27,673 nucleotides of DNA, from the NCBI GenBank assembly GCA_034189325.1, contig JAXHUM010000010.1, forward strand, positions 27,484 to 55,156, read 5' to 3'. The notes under the pieces are model-generated. The model was not told the origin of the DNA. It saw only the letters and a list, made by a program, of their open reading frames with translations, and did not search any database. Source of the DNA: Thermodesulfobacteriota bacterium. Its GTDB lineage: Bacteria; Desulfobacterota; DSM-4660; Desulfatiglandales; Desulfatiglandaceae. The position numbers and the translations under genes are program-made. How positions within the stretch are numbered: the stretch's first letter is position 1; every line of letters begins with the position of its first letter. Below are positions 4,978 through 21,128 of this stretch, piece by piece.

Positions 4978-7080
4978 CTAAAAATGGTAACTTACGCCTA
5001 CTTCAACGTAGACGCCGTCTTGAACATAATAGGCGTTTCTCGGCTCGCCATCGGCAGATGTCAGTCTTCCTGTTGAGTTCTGAACATTCTCAATCTCTTC
5101 ATCAAATAGATTCTTCCCAAGCACCCAAAACTTCCAGTTCTGAGTCGTGTAAGAGATGCTTGCGTCAACGGTCGTTTTTGATCCATACTCGATGCGGTTC
5201 AAATAATCTACGTATTCAGACCCGGTATAATTCACGTCAACGCTTGATTTGAGGCCTTTTACAGGGTAGAAATCCAAGCCCATGGTGAAGGAATAGACGG
5301 GTATCCCTATGAATTCCATTCCGTTCAGGTCTTTAAGTTCCCTCACATTTGTCGGATGGACGTAGACTCGCATCTGGCCTTCGGTCCATTGTGTATCAAG
5401 ATAGGACCCGGCAAAACGGTACCCTAAAAAAGGTCGGAGTCTTCCGTCCGCTTCAAGCTCAATGCCTTTGGTCTCTGTCTCCCCGATATTCTTCACACCT
5501 TTCCAGGTCGACCCCTCGTAATAGCTTGCAAACTTGTCCTTGCACTCGGTGAAAAAGCCCGTGAGGCTGATATTCAAAGACCTACTCATCATGTGCTTAT
5601 ACCCTATTTCATAGGTAAGGGATTCCTCAGGTTTCAAGTCTCCGGGGAGGTTGTTTGGGCTGGCCTTTTCTGCGGCCCACGCGTAGTATCTCGGTGTGGG
5701 AAACCAGAAGCTTCTCCCCACGGAAACATAGATGTTTGCTTTATCCATAAAACGACAGGAAGGAGCCACAGACCATCCGAACATGGTCTTGTCCTGATCT
5801 ACCTTTGTGCCTGCCCTATCTTCAAACTCGACTTCCGCCTTATCGATCCTGCCCCCGATCCTGAGTCCCCAGTTTTCTTCCAGCAATATATCGTTATCCC
5901 AGAAAAGGCCGTATTGCTTTTCTGAGATATCAAAGTCGCCGGCCGCAGTACTTTCGTCCGGACCATATGGGTATGTCTTGCGCTGGGTGAAATCGATATC
6001 CTCACAGTTGACGCCCACAGAGGGTGTGTAGCTGATCCCACCGAAATCGAAGTTGCCTCCGCCTGAAAGGGTGAAGGCATACGTTTCTTGATCCTTGTCA
6101 TCGAGGTCGCCGCGTGTTGCGGATGAAGAGATGTAGATATCCCTTGAGTCATTATATCTTTCTTCATAATCAATGTAGGATAATGCTGAAGACGCAAAGT
6201 ACTTATCACCGGCGTGGGAAAACTCGACCGCGTAGGTTGAAACGTCCTGGTCCCTTTCATTATGCCAGACCAATGTGGGGTCGGTTTCGCTCACGGGAAA
6301 ATGGATGTTCCTCCGGTAATTGTCGAGCTGATACTGATATTTCGCGAACCCGTAGACCGTATCATGGTCGTTCGTTAAAAAATTATAACGGACGCCGAGG
6401 CGGGTTTGTTCCGAGAGGTTGTAGCCGAGCTTAAGGAGAGTTGAAAATCGTGATTTTTCTTCCTCTTCGTAGCCGTCGGTCTTATAATTTGAAGCATTTA
6501 TAAAATAATCCCATTGATTAATAGCGCCTGATAAATCAGCGTACTCCTCATGGGTATTCCACGAACCATAAGATGCTGAGAGGTTGAAGTGAACCGGTTT
6601 ATCTCGTTTTCCCTTTTTAGTGATGATATTTATCACACCCCTAGAGGAACCTGGGCCATACGCGACCCCGGCGGAACGGAGGACCTCGATCCGTTCTATC
6701 TGGCTGACAGGGATAAAACTGAAGTGGTCATACCTGTAATCACCAATCTTCTGGGGAACTCCGTCAATAAGTATGACAGGCCCGCCCGCCATGCTGCTCC
6801 CAGTACCCCTTATGGCTACTGCGTCATCCTTGGCGCTCGTGTCTATGACTCCGGGGATTTTTGTCAGGGCCTCAATGATATTCTTCGCTCCCATCTCTTC
6901 CAGTTCCTTGGCAGTAATAATGGAAATACTTGCCGGTGTATCAATCATCTTTGTTTTGTGGGTCGCCGTCACGACAACCTCTTCCAACTCATGTATTCCA
7001 TCCTCTTCTTCCTGTGCGTTACACAGTGCGGATAGGCACACCAGGGGAAAACATACCAGAACAAACATCCACTTCTTCAT
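4978..7080 (-). CDS. TonB-dependent outer-membrane receptor (plug + beta-barrel)
   Basis: 700 aa. Signal peptide MKKWMFVLVCFPLVCLSALCNAQ. TonB-box-like EEVVVTAT. Plug-domain motifs (IEALTKIPGV, IRG..., RIEVLRSAG). C-terminal aromatic terminus ...VGVSYHF. RBS AAGGAGGT lies 6 nt upstream. Confidence 0.92.
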   Translation of the reverse strand: MKKWMFVLVCFPLVCLSALCNAQEEEDGIHELEEVVVTATHKTKMIDTPASISIITAKELEEMGAKNIIEALTKIPGVIDTSAKDDAVAIRGTGSSMAGGPVILIDGVPQKIGDYRYDHFSFIPVSQIERIEVLRSAGVAYGPGSSRGVINIITKKGKRDKPVHFNLSASYGSWNTHEEYADLSGAINQWDYFINASNYKTDGYEEEEKSRFSTLLKLGYNLSEQTRLGVRYNFLTNDHDTVYGFAKYQYQLDNYRRNIHFPVSETDPTLVWHNERDQDVSTYAVEFSHAGDKYFASSALSYIDYEERYNDSRDIYISSSATRGDLDDKDQETYAFTLSGGGNFDFGGISYTPSVGVNCEDIDFTQRKTYPYGPDESTAAGDFDISEKQYGLFWDNDILLEENWGLRIGGRIDKAEVEFEDRAGTKVDQDKTMFGWSVAPSCRFMDKANIYVSVGRSFWFPTPRYYAWAAEKASPNNLPGDLKPEESLTYEIGYKHMMSRSLNISLTGFFTECKDKFASYYEGSTWKGVKNIGETETKGIELEADGRLRPFLGYRFAGSYLDTQWTEGQMRVYVHPTNVRELKDLNGMEFIGIPVYSFTMGLDFYPVKGLKSSVDVNYTGSEYVDYLNRIEYGSKTTVDASISYTTQNWKFWVLGKNLFDEEIENVQNSTGRLTSADGEPRNAYYVQDGVYVEVGVSYHF

Positions 7081-7308
7081 TAGGACCTCCTTTTACGTTT
7101 TTTGTTTATTATTTGGAGGTCTGGTGATAGCCTATTTGCGGCCGGGTTATCCAAACCTCCATTGCGGGTTAGCGATTAAAGCCGGTGGGCAGAGCGGCTT
7201 ATGGCTTGGCGGCTTTCCGCTCTGCCCTTTCTTATCCACACAGTCTGAGTTTGGAAGAATCTGAAACCCCGGCAAGCACACAGGCAATCGTGTTCATGCC
7301 TTTTGGCA

Positions 7309-7556
7309 TAAAAAAATCCCCGGACCGAAATGAATCGATCCGGGGATTTCCCTTTTTTATCCTCAAGATCCTACGGCTTCCCTCAGTCCGCGAAGGTTGT
7401 GCCATTGTTATCCAGGCAGGTCTTCTGACTCTCGGATCATCCTACTTACCGCGCCTTCCCATCTATTTTATAACAGACAGTGGCATGATGCAGTGTTCGT
7501 CCCCGATCACAGCGGCGGGTCCGTCCCCGATTTAAACGGGGTTCCCTATTAAGCTC
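7309..7556 (-). ncRNA. Cobalamin (B12) riboswitch, copy 1, with intrinsic-terminator expression platform. It is the leader of the TonB-receptor/CobN operon.
   Basis: The minus strand reads AAUAGGGAACCCCGUUUAAAUCGGGGACGGACCCGCCGCUGUGAUCGGGGACGAA...GGGAAGGCGCGG...AGUCAGAAGACCUGCCUGG. This matches the conserved AGGGAA / GCCACUG-like core and the B12 box (complement of 7405-7420). It is followed by a 12-bp hairpin (complement of 7316-7348) and a U7 tract (complement of 7310-7316). Confidence 0.85.
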
Positions 7557-7591
7557 CTCAAGAGCTCCTGAATAGAATATATGTAGTAGTA

Positions 7592-7619
7592 AGTTTAGTT
7601 AACTGCAAAAAAGAGTCAA
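7592..7619 (-). promoter_or_regulatory. Candidate sigma-70 promoter for riboswitch 1 and its operon
   Basis: Minus strand TTGACT (complement of 7614-7619), a 16-nt spacer, then TAAACT (complement of 7592-7597), about 35 nt upstream of the aptamer. The same architecture recurs before copy 2. Confidence 0.35.
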
Positions 7620-8431
7620 GAAAAAAATGCGGCTGCAGTCTAGCAACGCGAATGCCCTGCAACCCTGGCATACGACTTCAGTTTTGACCAGATTGTCATG
7701 ATCGCATCTCCGCTCTCCTTAATCGATCAGGATCAGTCCGTACAATACGTTTTCGGTGTAGTCGATTTCTGTAAATGAACCTACTTCGATTCCTATGGCG
7801 TCCAGGGAGGGCCTGACATTTGTCGGATCAAGGCATTTGCCATGTTTCCAAATTCACATGCATCGCAAAGATTACAATTGCCCGGGAAAAAACAAAAGGA
7901 TATCCTTGCCCTCCCTTCGCATCCTCAGACTGCAATCTAGGTCTCAGGCATGTTCTTCAACTTTCCTTTGGCAAGTCACCGGCTTTGCCGGGCGTCCCAG
8001 CAGAGTCTGATATTTAAGGGATAAAATGAAGATCCCTCTTGTAGTGAACCGCTCAGCCCTGCAAACAAAGGAGAGAGTTCGATAAACGATACATCAATTC
8101 CAAATCACGCAAGATAGGAACGCCAATGTCATATCATCCTGGTTCCCAAGGTCCAAAAGAAAATGTTATTCGCTCATTATGGGCACTGCCCGGGTTTTAA
8201 GGAATGTGGAACATACCCGTGAGAGTAAAGTGATGGAAGGACATCCGTCATATCACCAAGTGCCCAACGCTCCTGTCAATGCCCCCAAAATTCTCGATGG
8301 CGCAGACTGTGGTATGTAGCAAGGGTAAAAGCGTCATTCATATCACAGGCACCTACATGGGCCGGCGAAAAAACCTTGGAGGACATCAGTGTCGGTCCAG
8401 GAGATAATTTCGTTTCGACAGTTGATCGTGA

Positions 8432-8920
8432 CTACATATAATCAAACTTTCTCCAAAAATCCTTATCGCCACTTCTCCAATCAGAACCGAATCTTTTGTC
8501 ATAATGGGAGGCCATTCTATCGAGCCAACGCCACCATAAACTCTTGCCTTCCTCTTTGGCTTCCAGGACATCATTTAGATATATTGGAAGGTCAATCATT
8601 TTCTCCTTTGGCACATAAAAGGCAGCTCCTCCCTTGAATGATTTGACAGTATGCTCCGGGCTCAGGGCATTGGCGGTCAACATAACAGCTATTACTTTTT
8701 CTTTGTTTGCTATCTTTAACAGACCATATCCGTCTACACCCATAATATCCAGAATGGCCATGTCAAAATACTGAGATTCTAGTAGTTCTTTTGCTTCATT
8801 AAAGGTTGAGGCCTTTACAACATTACACATTGATAATAGTTCTTCAAGTGTTACCAATATATCGGGTTCGTCATCTACAATAAGAATTCTTTTGCCATGC
8901 AACAGGCTTTTCTTTGTCAT
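8432..8920 (-). CDS. Single-domain response regulator (CheY-like receiver) with a C-terminal Trp/Arg-rich ~45-aa tail. Sits directly downstream of B12 riboswitch copy 2.
   Basis: 162 aa. ILIVDDEPDIL (acidic pocket), AILDIMG (phospho-acceptor Asp), MLTA (conserved Thr), FKGGAAFYVPK (conserved Lys). Tail LEAKEEGKSLWWRWLDRMASHYDKRFGSDWRSGDKDFWRKFDYM. RBS CAGGAGC precedes the ATG. Confidence 0.8.
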   Translation of the reverse strand: MTKKSLLHGKRILIVDDEPDILVTLEELLSMCNVVKASTFNEAKELLESQYFDMAILDIMGVDGYGLLKIANKEKVIAVMLTANALSPEHTVKSFKGGAAFYVPKEKMIDLPIYLNDVLEAKEEGKSLWWRWLDRMASHYDKRFGSDWRSGDKDFWRKFDYM

Positions 8921-8959
8921 GATAAGTGCTCCTGATGAACTAATTTCCGTTTTTGGATG

Positions 8960-9204
8960 GAAAAATCCCCGGACCGAAGCAAATCGATCCGGGGATTTCC
9001 CTTTTTATCCTCGAAATCGTCAGGCAACCTCTGTCCGCGTAGGTCACCGCTCTCTTTGTTCAGGCAGGTCTTCTGACTTTCGGATCATCCTACTAGCCGC
9101 GCCTTCCCATCTGTTTTGTAACAGACACTGGCACAATGCTGCTTTCGTCCCCGATCACAGCGGCGGGCCCGTCCCCGAATTGAACGGGGTTCCCTATTAA
9201 GCTC
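8960..9204 (-). ncRNA. Cobalamin riboswitch, copy 2, with terminator. It is the leader of the receiver-domain gene.
   Basis: Same conserved blocks as copy 1 (AGGGAACCCCGUUCAAUUCGGGGACGGGCCCGCCGCUGUGAUCGGGGACGAA...AGUCAGAAGACCUGCCUG). Terminator hairpin is the complement of 8965-8996, followed by only 5 U. The middle stems are diverged relative to copies 1 and 3. Confidence 0.85.
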
Positions 9205-9235
9205 CATCAGGAGCGCCTGAACAGATTTTATATCC

Positions 9236-9263
9236 AGTTTAGTAAACCACGGAATTGTGTCAA
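9236..9263 (-). promoter_or_regulatory. Candidate sigma-70 promoter for riboswitch 2
   Basis: Minus strand TTGACA (complement of 9258-9263), a 16-nt spacer, then TAAACT (complement of 9236-9241). The position relative to the aptamer is the same as for copy 1. Confidence 0.35.
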
Positions 9264-9366
9264 GAGAAAAATAGTTGAGTAGCCTGGTTGCCCAATGCCT
9301 GCGCGCCGTCACGCTTTGTGGTATTCTCAAACATTCCTGAAACCCCTACCTGTTCCCTTTACGCGG

Positions 9367-9564
9367 TCAGTTCAGAGATGGCGGAATCACAAAATGCTTC
9401 CGGGTCCGAGAGGCATGGGGCATGTCATCCATCCTGCTCAGGGCCAGGACATCCGCCTTCTTTTGGATCCATCTCTCATATTCTCTTGAGATACTCGGAT
9501 CGTAAAAGATGAGGACTTCCCCAAGGTACTTCAATTCTTCACTGATTCGCCAATACTGGTGCAT
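9367..9564 (-). CDS. 65-aa hypothetical small protein downstream of B12 riboswitch copy 3
   Basis: MHQYWRISEELKYLGEVLIFYDPSISREYERWIQKK.... Near-consensus SD AAGGAGGT sits 6 nt before the ATG. About 155 nt downstream of the riboswitch 3 terminator. No recognisable domain. Confidence 0.4.
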   Translation of the reverse strand: MHQYWRISEELKYLGEVLIFYDPSISREYERWIQKKADVLALSRMDDMPHASRTRKHFVIPPSLN

Positions 9565-9719
9565 AACAACCTCCTTCCTTGTCTGTGAGCATCTGAACAG
9601 GGCGGAAAGACGGAGCCCTTATGAGCCTTGATCGTCCCTATCTGTTTCTCACTATTCAGATTCCATGGGTCGATCCGGTGTTTATCTCTTTTTGGTCCTA
9701 TGGCGAAGCAGGGGACCAA

Positions 9720-9965
9720 ATAAAAAATCCCCGGACCGAAATGAATCGATCCGGGGATTTCCCTTTTTTATCCTCAAGATCCTACGGCTTCCCTCAGTCC
9801 GCGGAGGTTGGCCATCGTTATCCAGGCAGGTCTTCTGACTCTTGGATCATCCTACGTGCCGCGCCTTCCCATCCGTTTTAAACGGCCAGTGGCTTCAGGC
9901 GGCTTTCGTCCCCAATCACAGCGGCGGGTCCGTCCCCGAATTCAACGGGGTTCCCTATTAAGCTC
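9720..9965 (-). ncRNA. Cobalamin riboswitch, copy 3, with terminator
   Basis: Shares the conserved blocks. The expression platform (complement of 9722-9810) is virtually identical to copy 1. Hairpin is the complement of 9727-9759, followed by a U6 tract. A small palindromic hairpin GCUCACAUGAGC lies immediately 5' of the aptamer. Confidence 0.85.
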
Positions 9966-9986
9966 ATGTGAGCACCTGTTCTGAGA

Positions 9987-10016
9987 AAAAGTAGATCAAA
10001 TAAACAGAGGTGTCAA
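9987..10016 (-). promoter_or_regulatory. Candidate promoter for riboswitch 3
   Basis: Minus strand TTGACA (complement of 10011-10016), a 17-nt spacer, then a weak -10 TACTTT. Confidence 0.3.
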
Positions 10017-10102
10017 TGCCAAAACCACTCGTACCGAGATTTACACTCATTCAAGTTGGGGTTCTCTTCTTCAGATCAAGAATGATGCGCCTGTTTTTAC
10101 CT

Positions 10103-10131
10103 TGACAATAAAATATGGTTATATCTACATA
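10103..10131 (+). promoter_or_regulatory. Candidate sigma-70 promoter for the ABC-transporter operon, divergent from riboswitch 3
   Basis: TTGACA at 10103-10108, followed by an AT-rich spacer and TATATC/TATCTA-like -10 candidates. An AT-rich tract with an ATATCTA direct repeat follows. Confidence 0.3.
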
Positions 10132-10222
10132 TCTATATATATACACACTTGTATTTCTAGGTAAATCCGGATGGATCCGACTAACCGCTATCTCCTTTTA
10201 CGCTTAGGAATCCAGGATCGAT

Positions 10223-11125
10223 ATGAAACTTTGGCACCTATTTCAGATAACTCCTCAGCGAACACAAATGGAAGATCCCGGCCTTTCTCATGCTTCTGAT
10301 GAGTTTCCGGTCCCTCCTCGGAAGGCAGAAATGTTTTTGAGATCGACCATGATTGGCGTCCTCTCTATCCTCCTGATTCTCGTGGCCTGGCACCTGGTGG
10401 CCCTGATGGTGATCACTCTTAGACAAACGCCCTTTCCAACCCCCTGGGAGGTCTTGGAGCGCTTCGTACGGTTGTTGTCGGGCCATCCTCTTTACAACAA
10501 GGGGATTGAGGAGCATCTGGTCATGAGTCTGAGTCGGTGGGGCATCGGTTATCTTCTGTCGGTGATAACAGGCCTTTTGGTTGGAATGCTTCTGGGTGCC
10601 TATCGTCGCCTGCACTCCCTTTTGATGCCTGCAATTATCGTCCTCCAATTGATTCCCGGAATGGCCTGGATCCCTATTGCCATGCTCCTGTTCGGCCTTG
10701 GGGAGGAGACCACAATATTCATTATTTTCGTGACCGCCCTGCCTCCCATTATCATCGACACAACGGCCGGGATTCGGATGGTACCGAAAATCTATATCAA
10801 GGTAGCCCGGATGGTCGGCCTGAGACAGGGTGAGCTCTTTTTTCGAGTCCTGATGCCGGCGGCCCTTGTTCCGATTATCAATGGACTGCGCATCGGTTTT
10901 GCCAATGGGTGGCGTGTTCTTATTGCCGCGGAAATGATCGTGGGCGTATCAATAGGATTGGGGTATTCATTGATCCAGGCGAGATGGTCCATCGATTTTG
11001 AGGCCGCCCTTGTCTGTATTGTGATTATCTGTATTTTTGGTCTGATTATGGAAAAGGGCCTCTTCGCCCTAATCGAGCAGAGGGTTATGGCGCGCCAGGG
11101 GCTTGTAAAGGATGTCCTCACATGA
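10223..11125 (+). CDS. ABC transporter permease, NitT/TauT (SsuC/TauC/ThiX-like) family
   Basis: Six hydrophobic segments. Binding-protein-dependent permease fold (…IAAEMIVGVSIGLGYSLIQA…). The first ATG gives 300 aa. The true start may be the internal ATG at 10331 (MFLRSTMIGV…, 264 aa), which fits the family size better. 4-nt ATGA overlap with the ATPase gene. Confidence 0.8.
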   Translation: MKLWHLFQITPQRTQMEDPGLSHASDEFPVPPRKAEMFLRSTMIGVLSILLILVAWHLVALMVITLRQTPFPTPWEVLERFVRLLSGHPLYNKGIEEHLVMSLSRWGIGYLLSVITGLLVGMLLGAYRRLHSLLMPAIIVLQLIPGMAWIPIAMLLFGLGEETTIFIIFVTALPPIIIDTTAGIRMVPKIYIKVARMVGLRQGELFFRVLMPAALVPIINGLRIGFANGWRVLIAAEMIVGVSIGLGYSLIQARWSIDFEAALVCIVIICIFGLIMEKGLFALIEQRVMARQGLVKDVLT

Positions 11126-11907
11126 TCGTTGAATGCCGCGATATTTCAAAAATCTATCTCTACCCAAAGGAGCACATGGGCAGGTATGCCCTGAGAGATG
11201 TGACTATCTCTGTGGAGGAAAAGGAGTTCGTCTGTATTATCGGTCCAAACGGTTGTGGAAAGAGCACATTGCTCCACATGATCGCAGGTCTTGAAAAACC
11301 CACTCAAGGCCGAATCCTGGTCCATGGAAGACCACTCAATGGACCGTCTCCCAACCGTGGGGTTGTTTTTCAGGAACCCAGCCTTTTTCCGTGGCAAAGC
11401 GTTCTTGGAAACATTGGGTTTGGCCTCAAGGCCCAGGGAGTCCCGAGGCGTGACCGTGATAAGATATCCAGACATTATCTTGATCTGGTGGGCCTGAGAG
11501 GGTTCGACCATGCCAGACCTCATGAACTGTCCGGAGGAATGAGACAAAAGGCCGCCATTGCACGGACATTGGCGCTGGAACCTGATATTCTCCTTATGGA
11601 TGAACCTTTTGGTTCGTTGGATGAGCAGACAAAATTGAGACTCGATGTTGAGCTCCTCAACATCTGGAAGGAGGAAAAAAGGACGGTAATTTTTGTCACT
11701 CACTCTATTGAGGAGGCGATTTTGTTGGCCGACCGGATTGTCCTCTTAACCGAGCGACCCGGGACCATTCAAAAACAGCTGATTTTGTCCATGCCCAGAC
11801 CGAGGAACCTGTTTGACCCGGGAGTATCGAAGATCAGACAAGATCTCCTGGAACATTTGATCCCTGATTGTCCGACGGTCAATCAGGGTATTTCAGAGGA
11901 AGCATGA
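11122..11907 (+). CDS. ABC transporter ATP-binding protein (NitT/TauT family)
   Basis: Walker A GPNGCGKST, ABC signature LSGGMRQKAAIARTL, Walker B LLMDEPFGSLD, H-loop VTHS. Confidence 0.9.
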   Translation: MIVECRDISKIYLYPKEHMGRYALRDVTISVEEKEFVCIIGPNGCGKSTLLHMIAGLEKPTQGRILVHGRPLNGPSPNRGVVFQEPSLFPWQSVLGNIGFGLKAQGVPRRDRDKISRHYLDLVGLRGFDHARPHELSGGMRQKAAIARTLALEPDILLMDEPFGSLDEQTKLRLDVELLNIWKEEKRTVIFVTHSIEEAILLADRIVLLTERPGTIQKQLILSMPRPRNLFDPGVSKIRQDLLEHLIPDCPTVNQGISEEA

Positions 11908-11910
11908 GGT

Positions 11911-13005
11911 ATGCGGAAAGACATTGAGCATTCAGAGACGGACAAGCAGGTGCGTCGTCTCACACGAAAAGAGAAGATAGAGACCTTCAGAAAGGCGCGA
12001 AAGAGGAGAAACCGAATTATCAGAGACATACTGATGGTCGTTCCCGTGGTCGTGGGTGTGGGGCTGGGCATTATTCTTTATCAGGGTGTCAGGGAAAAAG
12101 AGAAAAGCAGAGAGAGTATTGTCTTTGCCTTTCAAGACCGCGTTGCGGACGCCCTTCCCATTGTGGCGGTCGAGAAAGGCTTTTTCAAGGCAGAGGGGCT
12201 GGATATCACGGCACGCGTGTTTTGCAGCGGCCCGGAATGCACCGAGGCCCTTATTTCCGGTGGTGCCACTTTCGGGACCATGGGTGATACCACGGCTGTT
12301 ATTCTCCTTTCCAGGAGAGCGGATGCCTTTAAAATCATCTGCTCCCACGGCGGCGGTGAAAAACGCCATAGGATCGTTGTTTCGGACAAGAGCGAAATAA
12401 GGAGCATTACCGGTCTCGAGGCAAAGAAAATAGGCGTCAAGAAGGGGACCTCCACACATGGAGGCCTTCTGAGGTTCGCCCGGAAACATGGCCTTGACCT
12501 GAGAGACTCCATTGTGGATATGTCTCCCTCTCTTCAGCTCACGGCCCTGGCGACAGGAGAATTAGACGCTATTGTGGCCAGTGAACCGACACCGTCACAG
12601 GCCGAAGAAGGAGGGTTCGGCAGGCCCCTGGCAACGCTTGAAGGCCTTGGAAACAGCTATCCCGTACTGCTGGCCGTAAAGGCCTGTTTTGCTCAAAAGC
12701 ATCCGGACGTTGTGGCAAAAGTCCTCCGTGCCCTTAATCGGGCCGAGGACTTCGTTGAGGGCCATTGGGATGAAGCCGCTGTCATTCAATCAGAGATCAA
12801 TGGGCTGGGACCCGAAGTCATAAAAAGGGCCATGGGATTTCATTCCTATTCTGTTTCATTGGACAGCAAAATCCGGAAAAGCCTGATGGCTTCGGCGCAG
12901 TTCCTTAAGACAAATGGGACTATAGACCAAATGCCCGATTTTGACGTTGCCCTGGCCCCCTCTTATCTTATGCAGGCTAGTGAAGGGGCAAGGCGTGGCG
13001 AATGA
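11911..13005 (+). CDS. ABC transporter substrate-binding protein, NMT1/THI5/SsuA-like. Membrane-anchored, with a very basic N-terminal extension.
   Basis: 364 aa. TM anchor MVVPVVVGVGLGIILY preceded by KQVRRLTRKEKIETFRKARKRRNRIIRD. The periplasmic domain has the typical two-lobe SBP pattern. It is last in a permease-ATPase-SBP operon. Confidence 0.75.
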   Translation: MRKDIEHSETDKQVRRLTRKEKIETFRKARKRRNRIIRDILMVVPVVVGVGLGIILYQGVREKEKSRESIVFAFQDRVADALPIVAVEKGFFKAEGLDITARVFCSGPECTEALISGGATFGTMGDTTAVILLSRRADAFKIICSHGGGEKRHRIVVSDKSEIRSITGLEAKKIGVKKGTSTHGGLLRFARKHGLDLRDSIVDMSPSLQLTALATGELDAIVASEPTPSQAEEGGFGRPLATLEGLGNSYPVLLAVKACFAQKHPDVVAKVLRALNRAEDFVEGHWDEAAVIQSEINGLGPEVIKRAMGFHSYSVSLDSKIRKSLMASAQFLKTNGTIDQMPDFDVALAPSYLMQASEGARRGE

Positions 13006-13143: not shown

Positions 13144-13515
13144 GTGAACATGGATAGTCCTGAACAAAGAAACAAGAACAAGGGGACATTGCCCCTGATT
13201 TTAGAGCGGGCGCCTGAGGACGGCATATGCTGCAGTACCGATGAGTGCGCCAACATGATGAGGGTCCTGGGTGATACAAATCGCCTGCAGATTATTCGTT
13301 CTCTCATTGCCGGACCCAAGAACGTCAGCCAGATATCCGAAGCCACCCATTTGCATCCTCAAAGGGTGTCCCATCATCTTAGCCCCATGCGATTGGCCGG
13401 TTTGGTGCTGGGTGAGCGGCATGGTCGGAATATCATTTATAGGATCAGCCCCAAAATCGCATGCGAACAGGGGTTGGATCTCGGGTGTTGCTCTATTGTT
13501 TTTCGGGCGTTTTAA
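13144..13515 (+). CDS. ArsR/SmtB-family metalloregulatory transcriptional repressor
   Basis: 123 aa. Winged-HTH core LGDTNRLQIIRSLIAGPKNVSQISEATHLHPQRVSHHLSPMRLAGLV. Cys cluster CCSTDEC just before helix alpha-1, the typical position of metal/metalloid-sensing sites. Confidence 0.85.
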   Translation: MNMDSPEQRNKNKGTLPLILERAPEDGICCSTDECANMMRVLGDTNRLQIIRSLIAGPKNVSQISEATHLHPQRVSHHLSPMRLAGLVLGERHGRNIIYRISPKIACEQGLDLGCCSIVFRAF

Positions 13516-16246: not shown

Positions 16247-18238
16247 TTGATAAGAATCATTGAAGATATTATGACCGAGTCTTTATTCAATTCCCCTTTT
16301 GATGATAGACCTGATAAGTGGACCGATTCTTTCGAAGGGAAGCGGACCGACATACCTATCAATATAGCCTTTATCGGTGGAGGAAAGGCCTGCTACAACC
16401 TTCTTCTGATTCTGGAGAAGAATCGTTCCTCGCGGGTCAACGTAAACGTCCTGGGCGTTGCTGATACCAATCCGGAAGCGCCGGGGTTGATTTATGCAAA
16501 GAAGCTCGGGCTCTTTGCAACGACCGATTTTAGAGACCTCTACAAGTTGGAAGGGTTGAATCTTCTCCTTGAATTAACAGGATCCGAAAAAGCCAGAAAA
16601 GAGATCATCAAAACGAAACCAGCGCATATTTCAATGATGGACCATATTGGAGGAAGATTCCTGTGGGATCTTGTCCAAATGGAGATGGAAAAGACAACCC
16701 TGGAAAGAGAACACCAGATTGAACAGCAGAAGGAGAAAAAACACACACAGGTGATCCTTGATTCTCTGCCCTACAGGGTCATGGTTATCAATATGGACAT
16801 GACGGTCGATAATGTTAACCAGACCTTTCTGAGTGAATTTGATCTCACGGATAAAGATGTCATCGGCGAAAAATGCCACAAGGTGAGATACAATCTTAAT
16901 CGACCTTGCGCGGAGTGTGGTAAGACATGTTATCTCAATGAGGTTGGGAAAGAAAAAAAGTCCATCAGCACGATCCAAGAGTGGAGGAATGATAACAGTG
17001 GGGAGAGGTTTGAAGTTGTGACCGTGTCCCCGATATTGGATGAAGATAATGAAATGGTCCAGTTCATAGAGGCATCGAGGGATGTTACCGAAAGGATCAG
17101 CCTGGAACGTGAAGCCCAGAAGACAAAGGTTTTTCTTGAAGATGTCATTCAGAGTACAGTGGACGGGATCGTTGTTGTCGATAATAAGGGATATGTTCTC
17201 ATATTCAACGAGGGGATGGAACGTCTGACAGGCTACGATGCCCGAGAGGTCAACCATCTGACAAGTTTCTATGACATCGATGTGGCCCGAGAGAACATGA
17301 GAAAGATGAGAAGTCAAGAGTATGGACCTCTGGGAAAACTCAACCCGACCAGCATGTCGGTGACAACCAAGGATGGCCGGGAGATTCCTGTTACACTTTC
17401 CGCATCCCTTGTTACCGTCAATAATGAGGTGATCGGAAGCGTGGGCGTGTTTACGGACATGCGGGAGATAGTCCAGATGCGCAAAGAGCTTGAAGACGCT
17501 CATCTTCAGCTGGTACAAACGGAAAAAATCGCATCAGTGGGAAGAATGGCCGCGGGTGTTGCCCATGAAATCAACAATCCTCTCTCGGGCGTGTTGATCT
17601 ATGCGGAGCTTTTAAAAGAATCCTTGGACGATCGGTCCCCCCTTCAAAAGGATATTCAGGAGATTGTAGATCAGACTCTTCGATGCAAGAAAATCGTGTC
17701 GGAACTCCTGGAATTCAGCAGACAGTCCATTGGGAAGACATCTTCTTTCAGTGTAGAGACATTGATCAATGATTGCCTGAATCTCTTGATAAACCAGGCT
17801 ATTTTTCAGGATATCGAGGTCAACACGCGACTGGAAGAGGAGATGCCTCAGATGCTGGGTGATAGGGGTCAACTTCAACAGGTCTTCACCAATCTCTTTA
17901 TCAACGCTGCCCATGCAATGGAGGGAAAGGGAGCTCTGGGTATCGACGCAAGATATGACAAGGCGAGGGAGTGTTTTGTCATTAAGGTGTCGGATTCAGG
18001 TCCCGGCATTTCTGAGGACCTTCGCGATAAGATCTTTGACATTTTCTTCACAACCAAACCGGTTGGAGAGGGCACCGGGCTGGGCCTGAGCATTTCCCAG
18101 AACATCATCAGTCTTCATGGAGGCAATCTCAGATTTGAATGTCCGAAGGAGGGAGGGACTGCTTTTATTGTTGAATTGCCTATTGGACTGTCAGAGACCG
18201 TTGTTGATGAACGTCTTTTTATTGGATTGGATGAATAA
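16247..18238 (+). CDS. Soluble sensor histidine kinase. N-terminal Rossmann-like domain, then a PAS region with a four-Cys motif, then HisKA and HATPase domains.
   Basis: 663 aa, no TM segments. N-terminal IAFIGGGKACYNLLLIL…VLGVADTNPEAPG (GxGxxA dinucleotide-fold-like). CHKVRYNLNRPCAECGKTC (C-X11-C-X2-C-X3-C). HisKA AAGVAHEINNPLSGV. HATPase N-box/G-boxes …NLFINAAHAM…DSGPGIS…GTGLGLSISQNIISLHGG. An alternative start at 16271 (MTESLF) is possible. Confidence 0.85.
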   Translation: MIRIIEDIMTESLFNSPFDDRPDKWTDSFEGKRTDIPINIAFIGGGKACYNLLLILEKNRSSRVNVNVLGVADTNPEAPGLIYAKKLGLFATTDFRDLYKLEGLNLLLELTGSEKARKEIIKTKPAHISMMDHIGGRFLWDLVQMEMEKTTLEREHQIEQQKEKKHTQVILDSLPYRVMVINMDMTVDNVNQTFLSEFDLTDKDVIGEKCHKVRYNLNRPCAECGKTCYLNEVGKEKKSISTIQEWRNDNSGERFEVVTVSPILDEDNEMVQFIEASRDVTERISLEREAQKTKVFLEDVIQSTVDGIVVVDNKGYVLIFNEGMERLTGYDAREVNHLTSFYDIDVARENMRKMRSQEYGPLGKLNPTSMSVTTKDGREIPVTLSASLVTVNNEVIGSVGVFTDMREIVQMRKELEDAHLQLVQTEKIASVGRMAAGVAHEINNPLSGVLIYAELLKESLDDRSPLQKDIQEIVDQTLRCKKIVSELLEFSRQSIGKTSSFSVETLINDCLNLLINQAIFQDIEVNTRLEEEMPQMLGDRGQLQQVFTNLFINAAHAMEGKGALGIDARYDKARECFVIKVSDSGPGISEDLRDKIFDIFFTTKPVGEGTGLGLSISQNIISLHGGNLRFECPKEGGTAFIVELPIGLSETVVDERLFIGLDE

Positions 18239-19710
18239 TGGATCAAAAGACTCGGATTTTGGTTGTAGATGATGAGAAGGTCGTGAGGGATGGCTGTATC
18301 AGGGTTTTGGCAGGCAAGGGGTATGAAGTCGTTGCTGCTGAAAATGGCCGACAGGCCCTGGATATTATGGCGCAAGAGCTTGTCGATCTTATTCTTCTTG
18401 ACTTGAAGATGCCCGTGATGAGCGGCGAGGAAGTCCTTGATATCACCAACACCACGTATCCTGAAATACCGGTCATCATTATCACGGGCCATGGGACTGT
18501 AGACACGGCAGTGGAATGTATGAAAAAGGGTGCCTACGATTTTATCACCAAGCCGTTTCAAATTGATCAGTTTCGGTTAACCGTATCCAGGGCCATTGAA
18601 AAGAGGAGGCTCGAGCAAAGAGCCAGGCAGTTTCAAGAGGAGAACATTCGAAATCTCTACGATCTGGACCTCGAAAAGAGCCGGTTGAAGACAATTGTCA
18701 ATTGTATGGCCAACGGGGTTATGGTAAGCAATCGGAATCTTGAGGTTGTCCTTCATAATCCGGCGTTGATGAGGCTGTTGGAGGTGTCGGAAGAGGTGTC
18801 GGGTCCGGTTCCCGTGGATCGAATAATAAAGGACGAATCCCTCGAAAATGTCCTTAGGCAGATTCAGGCGGGAGAATCTCCTGAAGAGGGATATATTTCG
18901 CAGGAGATCCAGGCCGGGCCGAAGGTCCTGCGATCCATGTCCGCGCCTGTCCTTGGACCTGACGGCGGGATTGTCGGCACGGTCACCGTCCTTGAAGACA
19001 TTTCGGCCTTTAAGCAACTTGACCAGATGAAGTCCGACTTCGTTAATATGGTGGTGCATGAACTTCGCAGTCCACTGGTCTCAATTAGACAGTTGAATAC
19101 GGTCCTTGTCGAGGGGCTGGCCGGAAAGCTTGAAATGAAGCAGGAAGAACTCATAGAACGAGGGAACAAGAAGATTGATGTTCTCCTGGACCTTGTCAAT
19201 GATCTCCTCGATGTGGCCAAGATTGAGGCCGGTAAGTACATACAACACCAGGTGCCCACCGATATTGGTCGTATTGTCGAAGATACTATGGCACTTATGG
19301 AAATGAGGGCCAAAGAGCAGGGCATTGATTTGAGCTATTCGTGCGAGAATCTGAAGCCGATTCATGCAGATCCAAAAAACATGGAAGAAATTCTTAATAA
19401 CCTCATCAGTAATGCCATCAATTACTCTCCCGAGGGGGGCCGGATAATGGTTAGTGCCTGTGGCTTGGGAGAGTATATGGAAATCAAAGTATCGGATACG
19501 GGAGTGGGGATTCCTGAAGAGGAACTGCCAAAGGTCTTTGATAAGTTCTATCGGGTCAAACATCCCAAAACCAGGCAGGTCCTGGGGACGGGCTTGGGGC
19601 TTGCCATTGTCAAGAGTGTTGTCGAGTCGCACCATGGTTCCATTGACGTGGAAAGCATCCTGGACAAAGGCACGACCTTTAGGATTTTGCTTCCAGTCAT
19701 ATCGCATTAG
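18238..19710 (+). CDS. Hybrid response-regulator/histidine kinase (REC-PAS-HisKA-HATPase)
   Basis: 490 aa. REC domain ILVVDDEKVVRDG…DLILLDLKMP…IIITGHG…KKGAYDFITKPF. HisKA MVVHELRSPL. HATPase GTGLGLAIVKSVVESHHGS. Start ATG overlaps the upstream stop (TAATG). Confidence 0.85.
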   Translation: MDQKTRILVVDDEKVVRDGCIRVLAGKGYEVVAAENGRQALDIMAQELVDLILLDLKMPVMSGEEVLDITNTTYPEIPVIIITGHGTVDTAVECMKKGAYDFITKPFQIDQFRLTVSRAIEKRRLEQRARQFQEENIRNLYDLDLEKSRLKTIVNCMANGVMVSNRNLEVVLHNPALMRLLEVSEEVSGPVPVDRIIKDESLENVLRQIQAGESPEEGYISQEIQAGPKVLRSMSAPVLGPDGGIVGTVTVLEDISAFKQLDQMKSDFVNMVVHELRSPLVSIRQLNTVLVEGLAGKLEMKQEELIERGNKKIDVLLDLVNDLLDVAKIEAGKYIQHQVPTDIGRIVEDTMALMEMRAKEQGIDLSYSCENLKPIHADPKNMEEILNNLISNAINYSPEGGRIMVSACGLGEYMEIKVSDTGVGIPEEELPKVFDKFYRVKHPKTRQVLGTGLGLAIVKSVVESHHGSIDVESILDKGTTFRILLPVISH

Positions 19711-19772
19711 GCCCACAATGAGCTCTCGGACCGCCTTGAAAGGGCGACAAAGGGACTTCTCTCCGGATTGCG

Positions 19773-21128
19773 ATGGATAAGACACATCTCAAACAGGTTC
19801 TCATCGTCGACGATGAGTCGGTTGTTAGAAACGGTATCAGCAGGGCCCTCAAGAACAGGGGGATGGAGACAAAACCGGCGGCAAACGGCAAAGAGGCCTT
19901 ATCCCTTTTGGATCATTTTGTTTTTGATCTTGCCCTTGTCGATATTCGGATGCCCGTCATGGACGGCATTGAGCTCTTAAGAGAGATGCGTTCCAAATAC
20001 CCCCAGGTGCCTGTTATCATGATCACCGGGTACCCGACCATTGATTCTGCTGTTGACTGCATCAAAATCGGCGCTGTAGACTATCTTGTCAAACCCTTCC
20101 GGCTCGATGATCTGGAAACCGCCTTGAGTAAGGTCGGCCCATCCAAAGGTCCGGTCCAGCATACCGCCATAAGCCAGGTGGGCCTGGAAATTGACTCCAA
20201 GAATAACCTCATTATTGGCCAGAGCCGGGCAATGAGGAGGATATTTGAGAAAACCCTCAAAGTTGCGCCGACGGATACCACGGTTCTGATAACCGGAGAA
20301 TCAGGGACAGGAAAAGAATTGGTGGCTCAGGCAATCCATGCCAACAGTAATCGCAAAGACCGAGAATTTGTGGCTGTTGATTGTTCTTCTCTCATGGAAT
20401 CGCTCCTTGAGAGTGAACTCTTCGGACATGTCAAAGGGTCTTTTACAGGGGCCCACCAGACAAAACACGGATTTTTTGAGCTGGCAAATTATGGGACCTT
20501 TTTTTTCGATGAAATCGGTAACTTAAGCCATAAAATTCAAGCTAAACTTCTCCGTGTGATCCAAGAGAGAGAGTTTGTAAAGGTGGGCGATCATGAGAGA
20601 ATAAAACTGGATATCAGGATCATATCCGCGTCAAATAAGAATCTTGAAGACTCTCTCAGTTCAGGTGAATTCAGAGAAGACCTCTATTACAGACTCAGTG
20701 TGGTCCCGATTCACCTGCCGCCTCTGAGGAAGAGAAAGGAGGATATCCCTCTGCTCGTTCCTCATTTTCTGAGTAAGTTCACTAAAAAACTGAAGAAATC
20801 GGTCCCGGAAGTATCGACTGAGGCAATGGAAATGCTGAAGGAATATGCCTGGCCGGGGAATGTAAGGGAGCTTGAACATACCATTGAGCGAATCCTCATC
20901 CTCGAAGATACAGACGTCATACAGGCTCGGGATCTCCCCTCATTTATCTCACAGAGGCAGGGTGAATTCCAGATGTTCTCTGAAGAACCGTTTACTCTTG
21001 AAGAGCTGGAAAAGAGATATATACGTTTTGTACTTCGCCGGACAAAAGGGAAAAAGTCTGTTACAGCCGATATCCTCGGTATCAATCGCAAGACGCTGGG
21101 CCTGAAAATTAAAAAGTATGGCCTTTGA
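19773..21128 (+). CDS. Sigma-54-dependent transcriptional response regulator (NtrC family: REC-AAA+-Fis HTH)
   Basis: 451 aa. REC domain (VLIVDDESVVRNG…ALVDIRMP). AAA+ Walker A GESGTGKELVAQAIH, ESELFGH, sigma-54 contact motif GSFTGA, R-finger region. C-terminal HTH …TKGKKSVTADILGINRKTLGLKIKKYGL. Confidence 0.9.
   Translation: MDKTHLKQVLIVDDESVVRNGISRALKNRGMETKPAANGKEALSLLDHFVFDLALVDIRMPVMDGIELLREMRSKYPQVPVIMITGYPTIDSAVDCIKIGAVDYLVKPFRLDDLETALSKVGPSKGPVQHTAISQVGLEIDSKNNLIIGQSRAMRRIFEKTLKVAPTDTTVLITGESGTGKELVAQAIHANSNRKDREFVAVDCSSLMESLLESELFGHVKGSFTGAHQTKHGFFELANYGTFFFDEIGNLSHKIQAKLLRVIQEREFVKVGDHERIKLDIRIISASNKNLEDSLSSGEFREDLYYRLSVVPIHLPPLRKRKEDIPLLVPHFLSKFTKKLKKSVPEVSTEAMEMLKEYAWPGNVRELEHTIERILILEDTDVIQARDLPSFISQRQGEFQMFSEEPFTLEELEKRYIRFVLRRTKGKKSVTADILGINRKTLGLKIKKYGL

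Follow-up and report, generated by a model that had tools for sequence, protein, structure and literature searches.

The closest described counterpart of the locus analyzed here is a 7-kb region of Desulfobacca acetoxidans that holds three adenosylcobalamin (AdoCbl) riboswitches, separated by open reading frames (ORFs) and each with its own terminator (Sherlock et al. 2022, RNA Biol 19:1059; PMC9481103), which its authors read as independent OFF switches (PMC9481103). We studied a 27.7-kb stretch of DNA from a Thermodesulfobacteriota bacterium (assembly GCA_034189325.1, contig JAXHUM010000010.1, positions 27,484 to 55,156; 27,673 nucleotides, hereafter the window), the minus strand of which carries three cobalamin (B12) riboswitches, numbered in the direction of transcription as RS1 (starting at 9994), RS2 (9235), and RS3 (7586). 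In both cases, three AdoCbl aptamers with their own terminators lie within a few kilobases of a Desulfobacterota genome and are separated by ORFs. The likeness is one of description, and the two differ in that each AdoCbl unit of Desulfobacca is coupled to a c-di-GMP-I or c-AMP-GMP riboswitch to give a two-input gate, whereas Rfam searches returned no second riboswitch family in the window at the gathering threshold, and none in 7000-10250 at E ≤ 1. Tandem riboswitches, the other obvious comparison, are defined by the lack of an intervening ORF and by gaps of <300 nt, and the 26 AdoCbl doublets and the SAM-I/AdoCbl NOR gate of the same study are tandem riboswitches within one 5' untranslated region (UTR) (PMC9481103). 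Our locus shares with these the presence of several complete units of the same class on one strand, each with its own platform, and read-through from RS1 into RS2 would have a similar serial effect on the receiver gene behind RS2. However, conserved ORFs and promoter-like sites stand between the copies (aptamer-to-aptamer gaps of about 570 and 1460 nt, with ORFs of 65 and 162 amino acids [aa]), which puts the array outside the tandem definition. The preliminary description of this DNA was right to hold that it is not a read-through tandem aptamer and that the three copies feed three different cargoes.

When compared with class-I cobalamin (Cbl-I) switches of the Rfam family RF00174 in general, the units are conventional in their full model match, B12 box, P6 extension, and downstream terminator. 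The same applies to part of the cargo, since the TonB-receptor/CobN operon behind RS3 and NrdD in sister loci belong to canonical categories (PMC3766115). The stand-alone receiver behind RS2 and the 65-aa protein behind RS1, on the other hand, fall outside these categories, and the expression platform is conserved almost to the nucleotide over many genomes and paralogues. An array of three ordinary riboswitches with a published precedent adds little alone; there is some novelty in the lineage-specific receiver cargo, in the recurrent microprotein family, and in the near-frozen cross-genome platform. A connection between B12 riboswitches and response regulators exists in Firmicutes, where a B12 riboswitch controls a decoy RNA (EutX/Rli55) that sequesters the ANTAR response regulator EutV. 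In our locus a B12 riboswitch is likewise tied to a response regulator, but it is located directly upstream of the receiver's own coding sequence.

All three riboswitches are complete. Using cmscan at gathering thresholds, we obtained exactly three Rfam matches in the window, all to RF00174 (Cobalamin) and all on the minus strand, as had been anticipated: RS1 at 9994-9808 (106.1 bits, E = 6e-26), RS2 at 9235-9046 (107.0 bits, E = 3.5e-26), and RS3 at 7586-7398 (110.2 bits, E = 4e-27). Each match spans model positions 1-189 of 189, and scores of 106-110 bits against a gathering score of 31.5 bits rule out chance. The B12 box (AGUCAGAAGACCUGCC) and the GGGAA core are found in every copy; a motif search located the box together with a GCCACUG..GGGAAGG block, the GGGAA block is visible in the alignments, and the GGGAAGGC core block is present as well. 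When the three copies were aligned, double-sided changes were seen at 4 of the 48 predicted consensus pairs. The compensatory stem changes noted previously thus exist but are few, and coming from three sequences only they would be weak alone. By score, core blocks, and compensatory pairing, RS1-RS3 are members of RF00174.

Each copy also possesses the hairpin and U-tract ascribed to it. About 50-60 nt past the B12 box, an 18-bp hairpin (GGGAAAUCCCCGGAUCGA/UCGGUCCGGGGAUUU) is followed by U6 in RS1, U5CC in RS2, and U7 in RS3, with fold z-scores of -2.9 to -5.7, such that an intrinsic terminator stands between aptamer and start codon in all three. According to the folds, the RS1 platform (9722-9815, minus strand) consists of a two-tier hairpin with the loop CGCGGAC (9815-9784), a putative antiterminator strand GGAUCUUGAGGAU (9782-9770), and the 18-bp terminator with U6 (9763-9722). 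The RS3 platform (7310-7405, minus strand) has the same loop (hairpin 7405-7373), the same strand GGAUCUUGAGGAU (7371-7359), and an 18-bp terminator with U7 (7352-7310). In the RS2 platform (8961-9048, minus strand), which is 80% identical to the other two, the hairpin with the CGCGGAC loop (9048-9023) is followed by CGAUUUCGAGGAU (9019-9007) and by the terminator with U5 (9001-8961).

This plan is not restricted to the window. Using an exact match to 36 specified bases of the hairpin, we found the terminator in 54 other public metagenome contigs, and 53 of the 54 carry a B12 aptamer on the same strand, 50-60 nt ahead of it. Many of these aptamers are much more diverged than the hairpin they share. 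Because the search demanded an exact match, the apparent invariance of the hairpin is inflated: among loci found through protein homologues instead (comparison loci carry L numbers), L091 has the same terminator stem with a shorter loop, and L147 has a diverged hairpin with a compensatory change from CCCC/GGGG to CCC/GGG. The hairpin is therefore conserved, but not immutable. Genes behind this platform, which we call type 1, encode about 20 diverse TonB receptors, OprB-like porins, CbiK, DUF4465, DUF3450, a CcsA-like protein, an 86-aa unknown protein, NrdD, and AraC-family regulators, so that functions in uptake predominate. Thirty-seven aligned non-redundant platforms have in common the B12 box with the 3' strand of P1, the two-tier hairpin, the strand GAUCUUGAGGAU, an A-run, and the terminator. 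The inner stem of the two-tier (P13-like) hairpin is 81% paired in this set, with UA, UG, and CG at one position and a CG(C/U/A)GGAC loop, and its covariation score was reached by none of 500 shuffles. The conserved loop resembles the L13 partner in the class-I kissing loop.

We then considered how such a platform might switch. In minimum-energy folds of nascent transcripts, the 5' arm of the terminator pairs with the GAUCUUGAGGA strand directly upstream in about 30 of 52 units; before the 3' arm is made, GAUC..GGAU is paired with AUCC..GAUC of the 5' arm. Variation in this strand among the 37 units is restricted to its predicted internal loop. We infer from these predicted folds that the GAUC..GGAU strand probably serves as an antiterminator. 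The expression platform is usually where a riboswitch is least conserved, and the constraint of a three-way pairing between antiterminator strand, 5' arm, and 3' arm would help to explain why this one changes slowly. A platform of P13-like hairpin, antiterminator strand, and terminator that is nearly unchanged in its nucleotides across genomes and cargoes also provides a natural data set that may help to clarify the coupling of class-I aptamers to terminators.

Promoter-like sites were found ahead of the units. Those of RS2 (9236-9263, minus strand; TTGACA-N16-TAAACT, 10 of 12 consensus matches) and RS3 (7592-7619, minus strand; TTGACT-N16-TAAACT, 9 of 12) end 1-6 nt ahead of the aptamer match and agree with the TTGAC(A/T)-TAAACT-type promoter that had been assigned to every copy. 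RS1 does not conform: the site read from its sequence (10013-9988, minus strand) combines a -35 element TTGACA (10013-10008), a 17-nt spacer, and a -10 element TACTTT (9993-9988), failed the consensus scan with only three of six -10 positions matching, and has its TTGAC about 8 nt nearer to the CAGG of P1 than usual. The scan is weak by itself, with 6 sites found versus 4.4 expected. In other contigs, however, TTGAC occurs upstream of the P1 strand in all of 40 non-redundant family units, at a distance of 36-42 nt in 34 of them, compared with about 9% by chance in a random 90-mer of the same composition. A TTGAC kept at a fixed distance throughout the family argues that these riboswitches bring their own promoter.

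The best explanation, to which we assign a probability of roughly 0.72, is that RS1, RS2, and RS3 are AdoCbl-type cobalamin riboswitches that each head a separate transcription unit, all on one strand and built on one type of platform that is common to a marine-sediment Desulfobacterota clade. Starting from the observed aptamers, hairpins, and ORFs, their conservation across the family, and the mosaic relationships described below, the presumed ligand response, switching direction, promoter activity, and protein functions would fit together as follows. A sigma-70-like promoter, positioned so that transcription would start at P1, would be followed by the full class-I aptamer, the P13-like hairpin, the GAUC..GGAU antiterminator strand, and the 18-bp terminator with its U-tract. 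With corrinoid bound, the folded aptamer would favor the terminator and keep transcription from reaching the cargo, as an OFF switch does; under corrinoid scarcity, the antiterminator would remain paired and the cargo would be transcribed. B12 limitation would thus turn on the canonical operon for TonB-dependent uptake and CobN chelatase, the 65-aa helical microprotein, and the orphan receiver, which is an addition of this lineage and could link corrinoid status with a phosphorelay. We favor the OFF direction because the type-1 cargo (TonB receptors, porins, CbiK, NrdD) corresponds to the classical B12-repressed categories listed by Sun et al. 2013 (PMC3766115). An OFF response has also been predicted for the similar AdoCbl units of Desulfobacca (Sherlock et al. 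2022; PMC9481103).

Several observations weigh against this reading. In the minimum-energy folds of RS1-RS3 themselves, the terminator arm pairs with the aptamer segments UGAUCCG and UUCGGGGA and not with the proposed antiterminator strand, and the terminator is far stabler than an antiterminator of roughly 10 bp. The L5 loop (GCCCG) is essentially invariant in all units and so offers no covariation with the C/U/A variation of the platform loop that would speak for or against an L5-L13 kissing loop; RNAalifold instead pairs the conserved CGCGG with CCUGC of the B12 box. (This loop-box pairing was not adopted, as two double changes only are too weak a basis.) RS1, with its 4-bp P1, weak -10 element, and strain polymorphism in the terminator, may be leaky or inactive. 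No terminator-like site was detected between the stop codon of the 65-aa gene (9367) and RS2, either by a terminator scan or by folding of 9260-9370 (z = -0.3), so that the units may not be transcriptionally independent. Finally, ligand binding, termination, and the transcription start sites of RS1-RS3 are all predicted.

Since the interval between 9367 and RS2 has no predicted terminator, some read-through from RS1 into RS2 is likely, and with all elements on one strand, the array could even be a single, serially attenuated operon, running from the RS1 promoter through the 65-aa gene, RS2, the receiver, the 780-nt spacer, and RS3 into the operon of the TonB-dependent receptor (TBDR). Such an arrangement would have a precedent of sorts in the serial AdoCbl doublets with separate platforms (26 reported; PMC9481103) and would impose three successive B12 checkpoints, with a steeper, pseudo-cooperative response for the distal genes. 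We nevertheless consider it improbable as the main mode. In both RS2 and RS3, a good -35/-10 pair runs up to the very start of the aptamer, the fixed-distance TTGAC is a property of all 40 family units, single units included, and a terminator-like hairpin followed by U7 (7647-7622, minus strand) stands immediately upstream of the RS3 promoter, where it could terminate the transcript of RS2 and the receiver. A decayed homologue of this 7622-7647 segment sits upstream of the RS2 promoter. The separate-unit and single-operon modes are not exclusive. Three independent transcripts, as originally proposed, are hence plausible in that each unit has a candidate promoter of its own and RS3 a hairpin before its promoter, but the proposal goes too far for the stretch between the 65-aa gene and RS2, where partial read-through is likely.

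The relationships among the three copies were also examined, as the near-identity of the RS1 and RS3 terminators had been taken as a sign that the regulatory module was duplicated or converted. Over whole units, the nearest neighbors are indeed found within the window (86-90% identity for RS1-RS3 and 83-86% for RS2-RS3, versus up to 81-83% for foreign units). This ranking did not hold when segments were compared separately. Among RS1-RS3 the aptamer cores share 85-89% identity, and with foreign units they share 85-88%. Over the 5' portion (promoter, P1, P2), RS1 is nearest to foreign units, while RS3 is nearest to RS2 at 72%, tied with L091; for the RS2 platform, the nearest relatives are units of other genomes. 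RS1 and RS3 specifically share just one tract, which runs from the B12 box to the hairpin (96%, versus ≤88% for any foreign unit), and here the two are nearly identical over 89 nt, with a single mismatch (99%; 7311-7399 versus 9722-9810). A recent triplication is rejected by this nearest-neighbor test. With the hairpin common to 54 foreign contigs and cores no closer to each other than to foreign units, duplication or conversion of the whole module is largely unsupported; near-identity of the terminators applies to RS1 and RS3, and gene conversion to that 3' tract only. Together, these comparisons indicate one local conversion or recombination event between otherwise old members of the family, in which a recent tract of about 90-130 nt probably put an RS3-type 3' end onto RS1. 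For neighboring riboswitch platforms in general, identity by itself is no evidence of recent duplication.

Such a conversion would have had a cost for RS1, which now carries the P1 3' strand of RS3 (CCUGGAUAAC) opposite an unrelated 5' strand and whose P1 is thereby mostly broken. As measured by the best duplex of 5' and 3' strands, P1 is 9 bp with -14.9 kcal/mol in RS2 and 8 bp with -9.3 kcal/mol in RS3, but is cut down to 4 bp (CAGG/CCUG) with -4.3 kcal/mol in RS1, and all three broken outer P1 pairs in the three-copy alignment belong to RS1. In the JGI contig L002, positions 9803-9850 (corresponding to the RS1 terminator, 9763-9722) show a strain polymorphism in the 3' arm, GGGGATTTTTT to GGGTTTTTTT, by which basal pairs are lost; the RS2 and RS3 terminators are unchanged in this contig. 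These features, along with the weak -10 element, raise the question of whether RS1, and possibly the whole RS1-microprotein unit, is decaying or non-functional, with the microprotein expressed constitutively or permanently terminated. We regard this as doubtful. The RS1 aptamer retains every core block and a score of 106 bits, purifying selection acts on the microprotein gene, which is intact, and the riboswitch-microprotein arrangement is conserved in L099, L103, and L127. Moreover, for class-I cobalamin switches the L5-L13 contact probably matters more than a long P1.

The slow change of the platform has one further conceivable cause: the terminated leaders (aptamer plus GGA-rich platform, about 270 nt) could double as trans-acting small RNAs, for example by titrating a CsrA/RsmA-type protein when B12 is abundant. 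The 36 specified hairpin nucleotides are identical in 54 contigs that differ in cargo and in their aptamer stems, six GGA motifs occur within about 80 nt of every platform, the RS1 platform gave a weak RsmY-like match (9725-9857, minus strand; 23.2 bits, E = 0.008), and the RNAs that sequester EutV provide a precedent for B12-controlled RNAs acting in this manner. Even so, we judge it very unlikely. The RsmY match is far under the gathering score of 57 and is seen in one of three copies only, so that the leaders do not qualify as a known sponge-RNA family; the invariance is partly a matter of ascertainment by exact matching, as the diverged and compensated hairpin of L147 attests; and the three-way pairing constraint already accounts for slow change.

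An assembly artefact, whether repeat collapse or a chimeric join of separate places or organisms, can be set aside: although the riboswitches form repeats with 80-99% identity, several short contigs break inside copies, and the Logan contig L001 both starts and ends in riboswitches, three independent assemblies (JGI, Logan, ENA) reproduce the array with 99.4-99.9% identity and in the same arrangement, the 21-kb JGI contig L002 spanning all three copies (99.8% identity to the window over 12.4 kb), L001 joining RS2, receiver, spacer, and RS3, and the ENA contig L003, from a separate project, joining the 65-aa gene, RS2, and receiver. In one source, the organism bears the name of a Desulfatiglans sp. 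metagenome-assembled genome.

Returning to the three separate units, we analyzed the cargo of each. The gene behind RS2 (8920-8432, minus strand), 42 nt after the riboswitch unit, encodes a 162-aa receiver (PF00072, E = 4.5e-10; 40.1 bits versus a cut-off of 30.2). D16, D17, D58, T82, and K105 are invariant in an alignment of 20 family members, and these residues, which comprise the acidic pocket, the phospho-acceptor Asp, and the Thr and Lys, establish together with the PF00072 score that it is a receiver domain. It has a 55-residue, Trp-rich C-terminal tail (WWRW..FG..W..D..FW) that is conserved across the family; a search of PDB sequences with the family profile matched receiver domains alone and nothing for the tail, and no ANTAR or other known output domain was detected in the protein. 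More than 5000 homologues were found, the best 120 of which are all about 160 aa and 66-80% identical. Among 599 candidate stretches from species-representative genomes, at least 555 were confirmed as receiver matches, and genomes often hold many copies, with at least 8 in one metagenome-assembled genome.

Among the relatives examined, none appears to share the riboswitch. Neither nhmmer nor a motif search revealed a B12 aptamer in the vicinity of the receiver in 80 genome loci, with an nhmmer profile that was built from three similar sequences but did detect diverged aptamers elsewhere; Rfam gave none in 13 receiver loci (10 genome loci and L084-L086), and none of the 54 type-1 units elsewhere has a receiver as cargo. 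A conserved riboswitch-receiver link is thus excluded for the loci examined, and the absence of riboswitches from receiver relatives indicates that the wiring is specific to this lineage. Nor did the family have a conserved gene partner, its neighbors being diverse in 72 loci (largest cluster 9). The closest paralogue, 80% identical and from the same metagenome (L084, 10001-10489), has no riboswitch; the gene cluster around it encodes MeaB, a B12-binding domain protein, CoA-transferases, carboxyltransferase/OAD subunits, and MmgE/PrpD and resembles a B12-dependent mutase pathway.

Signaling proteins are absent from the regulon categories catalogued for cobalamin riboswitches (PMC3766115). A phospho-accepting receiver directly gated by a B12 riboswitch would be a rare and testable case of a riboswitch feeding into two-component signaling. 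As a working inference, the protein could be a phosphate sink or connector made only under corrinoid limitation. On the opposite strand of the window, at 16247-21128, a PAS histidine kinase, a hybrid receiver-PAS histidine kinase, and a sigma-54-dependent response regulator follow each other in a row, 7-11 kb from the receiver (the kinases, 16247-18238 and 18238-19710, at 7-10 kb); they are possible phosphorelay partners. In L119 and L125, the first ORF after the type-1 terminator encodes an AraC-family helix-turn-helix regulator (PF12833/PF00165, tested on the L125 protein), which means that the receiver is not the sole regulatory protein under B12 control in the clade.

The cargo of RS1 is a 65-aa microprotein gene (9564-9367, minus strand), 160 nt after the RS1 unit and preceded by a GGAGG ribosome-binding site. 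The protein has no match in Pfam or NCBIfam. Its 11 close homologues all come from Desulfobacterota-type metagenomes, and a profile search extended the family to 92 representative clusters, nearly all of 44-90 aa, with the N-terminal 36-45 residues in common. Pairwise ratios of nonsynonymous to synonymous substitution rates (dN/dS) range from 0.12 to 0.35, the compared full-length members have a length of 65 aa, and nine of nine end in LN; low dN/dS, constant length, and the constant LN end argue that the gene is translated. An AlphaFold (AF2) model predicts a two-helix hairpin over residues 2-46 (predicted local distance difference test [pLDDT] score about 80-92) with a disordered tail, and a Foldseek comparison of the model with the PDB gave nothing at E ≤ 0.001.

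The position of the microprotein relative to type-1 riboswitches is recurrent. It lies 27-180 nt past a type-1 terminator in eight loci: it is the first ORF after the riboswitch in L127, L099, and L103, with NrdD next in the latter two, and truncated versions are the first ORF after the terminator in L098, L113, L116, and L130, with a porin gene next. Other members directly follow a TBDR (L118, L147) or precede a riboswitch-TBDR pair (L091), and in L087 the homologue comes directly after CobN in an operon of the window's type. Beyond the riboswitch and microprotein segments, no alignment was found between the window and the loci of the microprotein homologues. The presence of a riboswitch before the microprotein in L099, L103, and L127 argues that the linkage is ancestral and selected, and on these sequence grounds the microprotein may be regarded as a recurrent, unannotated member of the corrinoid regulon in a Desulfobacterota clade. 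A 65-aa family behind one type of B12 riboswitch and beside TBDR, CobN, and NrdD would be a candidate player in anaerobic corrinoid uptake or use.

Two neighborhoods deserve mention beside this. In L087 (10001-13269), the homologue stands between CobN and nrdD-nrdG (anaerobic ribonucleotide reductase), and in L146 it is followed by an ATP-cone fragment; the adjacency to NrdD, repeated in L087, L099, and L103, may reflect a functional connection with class III ribonucleotide reductase. A second uncharacterized small protein is found in the same regulon, the conserved 86-aa protein mentioned above (MKTGVILY..G...), which has no Pfam match and is the first cargo after the type-1 terminator in seven independent contigs (L092, L094, L100, L111, L129, L135, L143).

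A bolder view of the two unusual cargoes is that the gated orphan receiver and the dedicated 65-aa family extend the B12 riboswitch regulon of this Desulfatiglans-like lineage past metabolism and transport, a proposal we put forward only tentatively and think more likely wrong than right. If it held, the receiver could rewire a two-component or sigma-54 pathway in a direct riboswitch-to-phosphorelay link, the 65-aa helical-hairpin family would act with TonB-dependent corrinoid uptake, CobN, or class III ribonucleotide reductase, and the freezing of the platform across genomes could reflect an added function of the terminated leader RNA.

RS3 precedes an operon that occupies 7080-1 on the minus strand. 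As assigned by Pfam and NCBIfam, it encodes the TonB-dependent receptor (7080-4978), a DUF2162 protein (4898-4146), a MotA/ExbB protein (4149-3481), a DUF2149 protein (3500-3138), and a CobN-like chelatase (3154 to past the window end), in an order also found in L087. The earlier cargo list was right in outline, except that its 'ExbD-like' gene is DUF2149 and the DUF2162 gene was missed. The presence of a TonB receptor, a CobN-family chelatase, a MotA/ExbB-like protein, and DUF2149 in one operon is also a feature of the hmu-type, CobN-like TBDR operons of Bacteroidota (hmuYRSTUV), to which the RS3 operon may presumably be likened. It differs from these in its control by a B12 riboswitch and in the inclusion of DUF2162, and its candidate substrates are a corrinoid, cobalt, or another tetrapyrrole. 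Papers on iron and haem in Porphyromonas and Bacteroidetes mention DUF2149.

A highly structured leader of 230 nt (7309-7081, minus strand) separates the RS3 terminator from the TBDR start codon. The 7081-7309 segment folds with -86.1 kcal/mol (z = -5.8; 0 of 200 shuffles as stable) and comprises an 11-bp GC-rich hairpin (GGGCAGAGCGG..CCGCUCUGCCC) and, in the predicted fold, a GACCUCC/GGAGGUC helix that sequesters the GGAGG ribosome-binding site. Save for a weak NsiR1 match on the terminator, no Rfam family was detected in it at E ≤ 1, and its conservation across the fetched loci amounted to 25 nt in L108. The leader could be a second, translational control element behind the riboswitch.

By the ORF list, the spacer of about 780 nt between the receiver gene and the RS3 unit (7650-8431, minus strand) has no convincing ORF. 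Compared with all fetched loci by blastn and six-frame tblastn, it was found in the same-organism contigs L001 and L002 only, and it showed no Rfam match at E ≤ 1 and no unusual folding (z = -0.6). It is possibly a long 3' UTR or a decayed gene. The JGI annotation places a 46-aa ORF on the opposite strand within it, at 8179-8319.

Other B12 riboswitches on the same contigs as type-1 units (L099, 2985-3154; L133, 12065-12232; L109, 5232-5392; L128, 59-245) use two other types of terminator, AAAUCCUCGAGCG../..GGGGAUUUUUUU and GGGUGCAGCCCUUCAAAC../GUUUGAAGGGCUUUUUU, each of which is kept between contigs. This suggests that a genome has several distinct, separately conserved platform families, of which type 1 is one. 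In L143 (3491-3530), a second terminator hairpin with the GAUCUUGAGGAUAAAAAA strand lies 435 nt past the first and has no aptamer upstream; it is preceded by two N bases and could be an assembly problem or an orphan platform.

On the other side of the array, and divergent from RS1, the plus strand of the window encodes an ABC transporter (permease, ATPase, and NMT1/THI5-like binding protein; 10223-13005) with no riboswitch before it. The ORF that follows (13144-13515, plus strand) is annotated by JGI in L002 as an HTH_5 (ArsR-type) protein.

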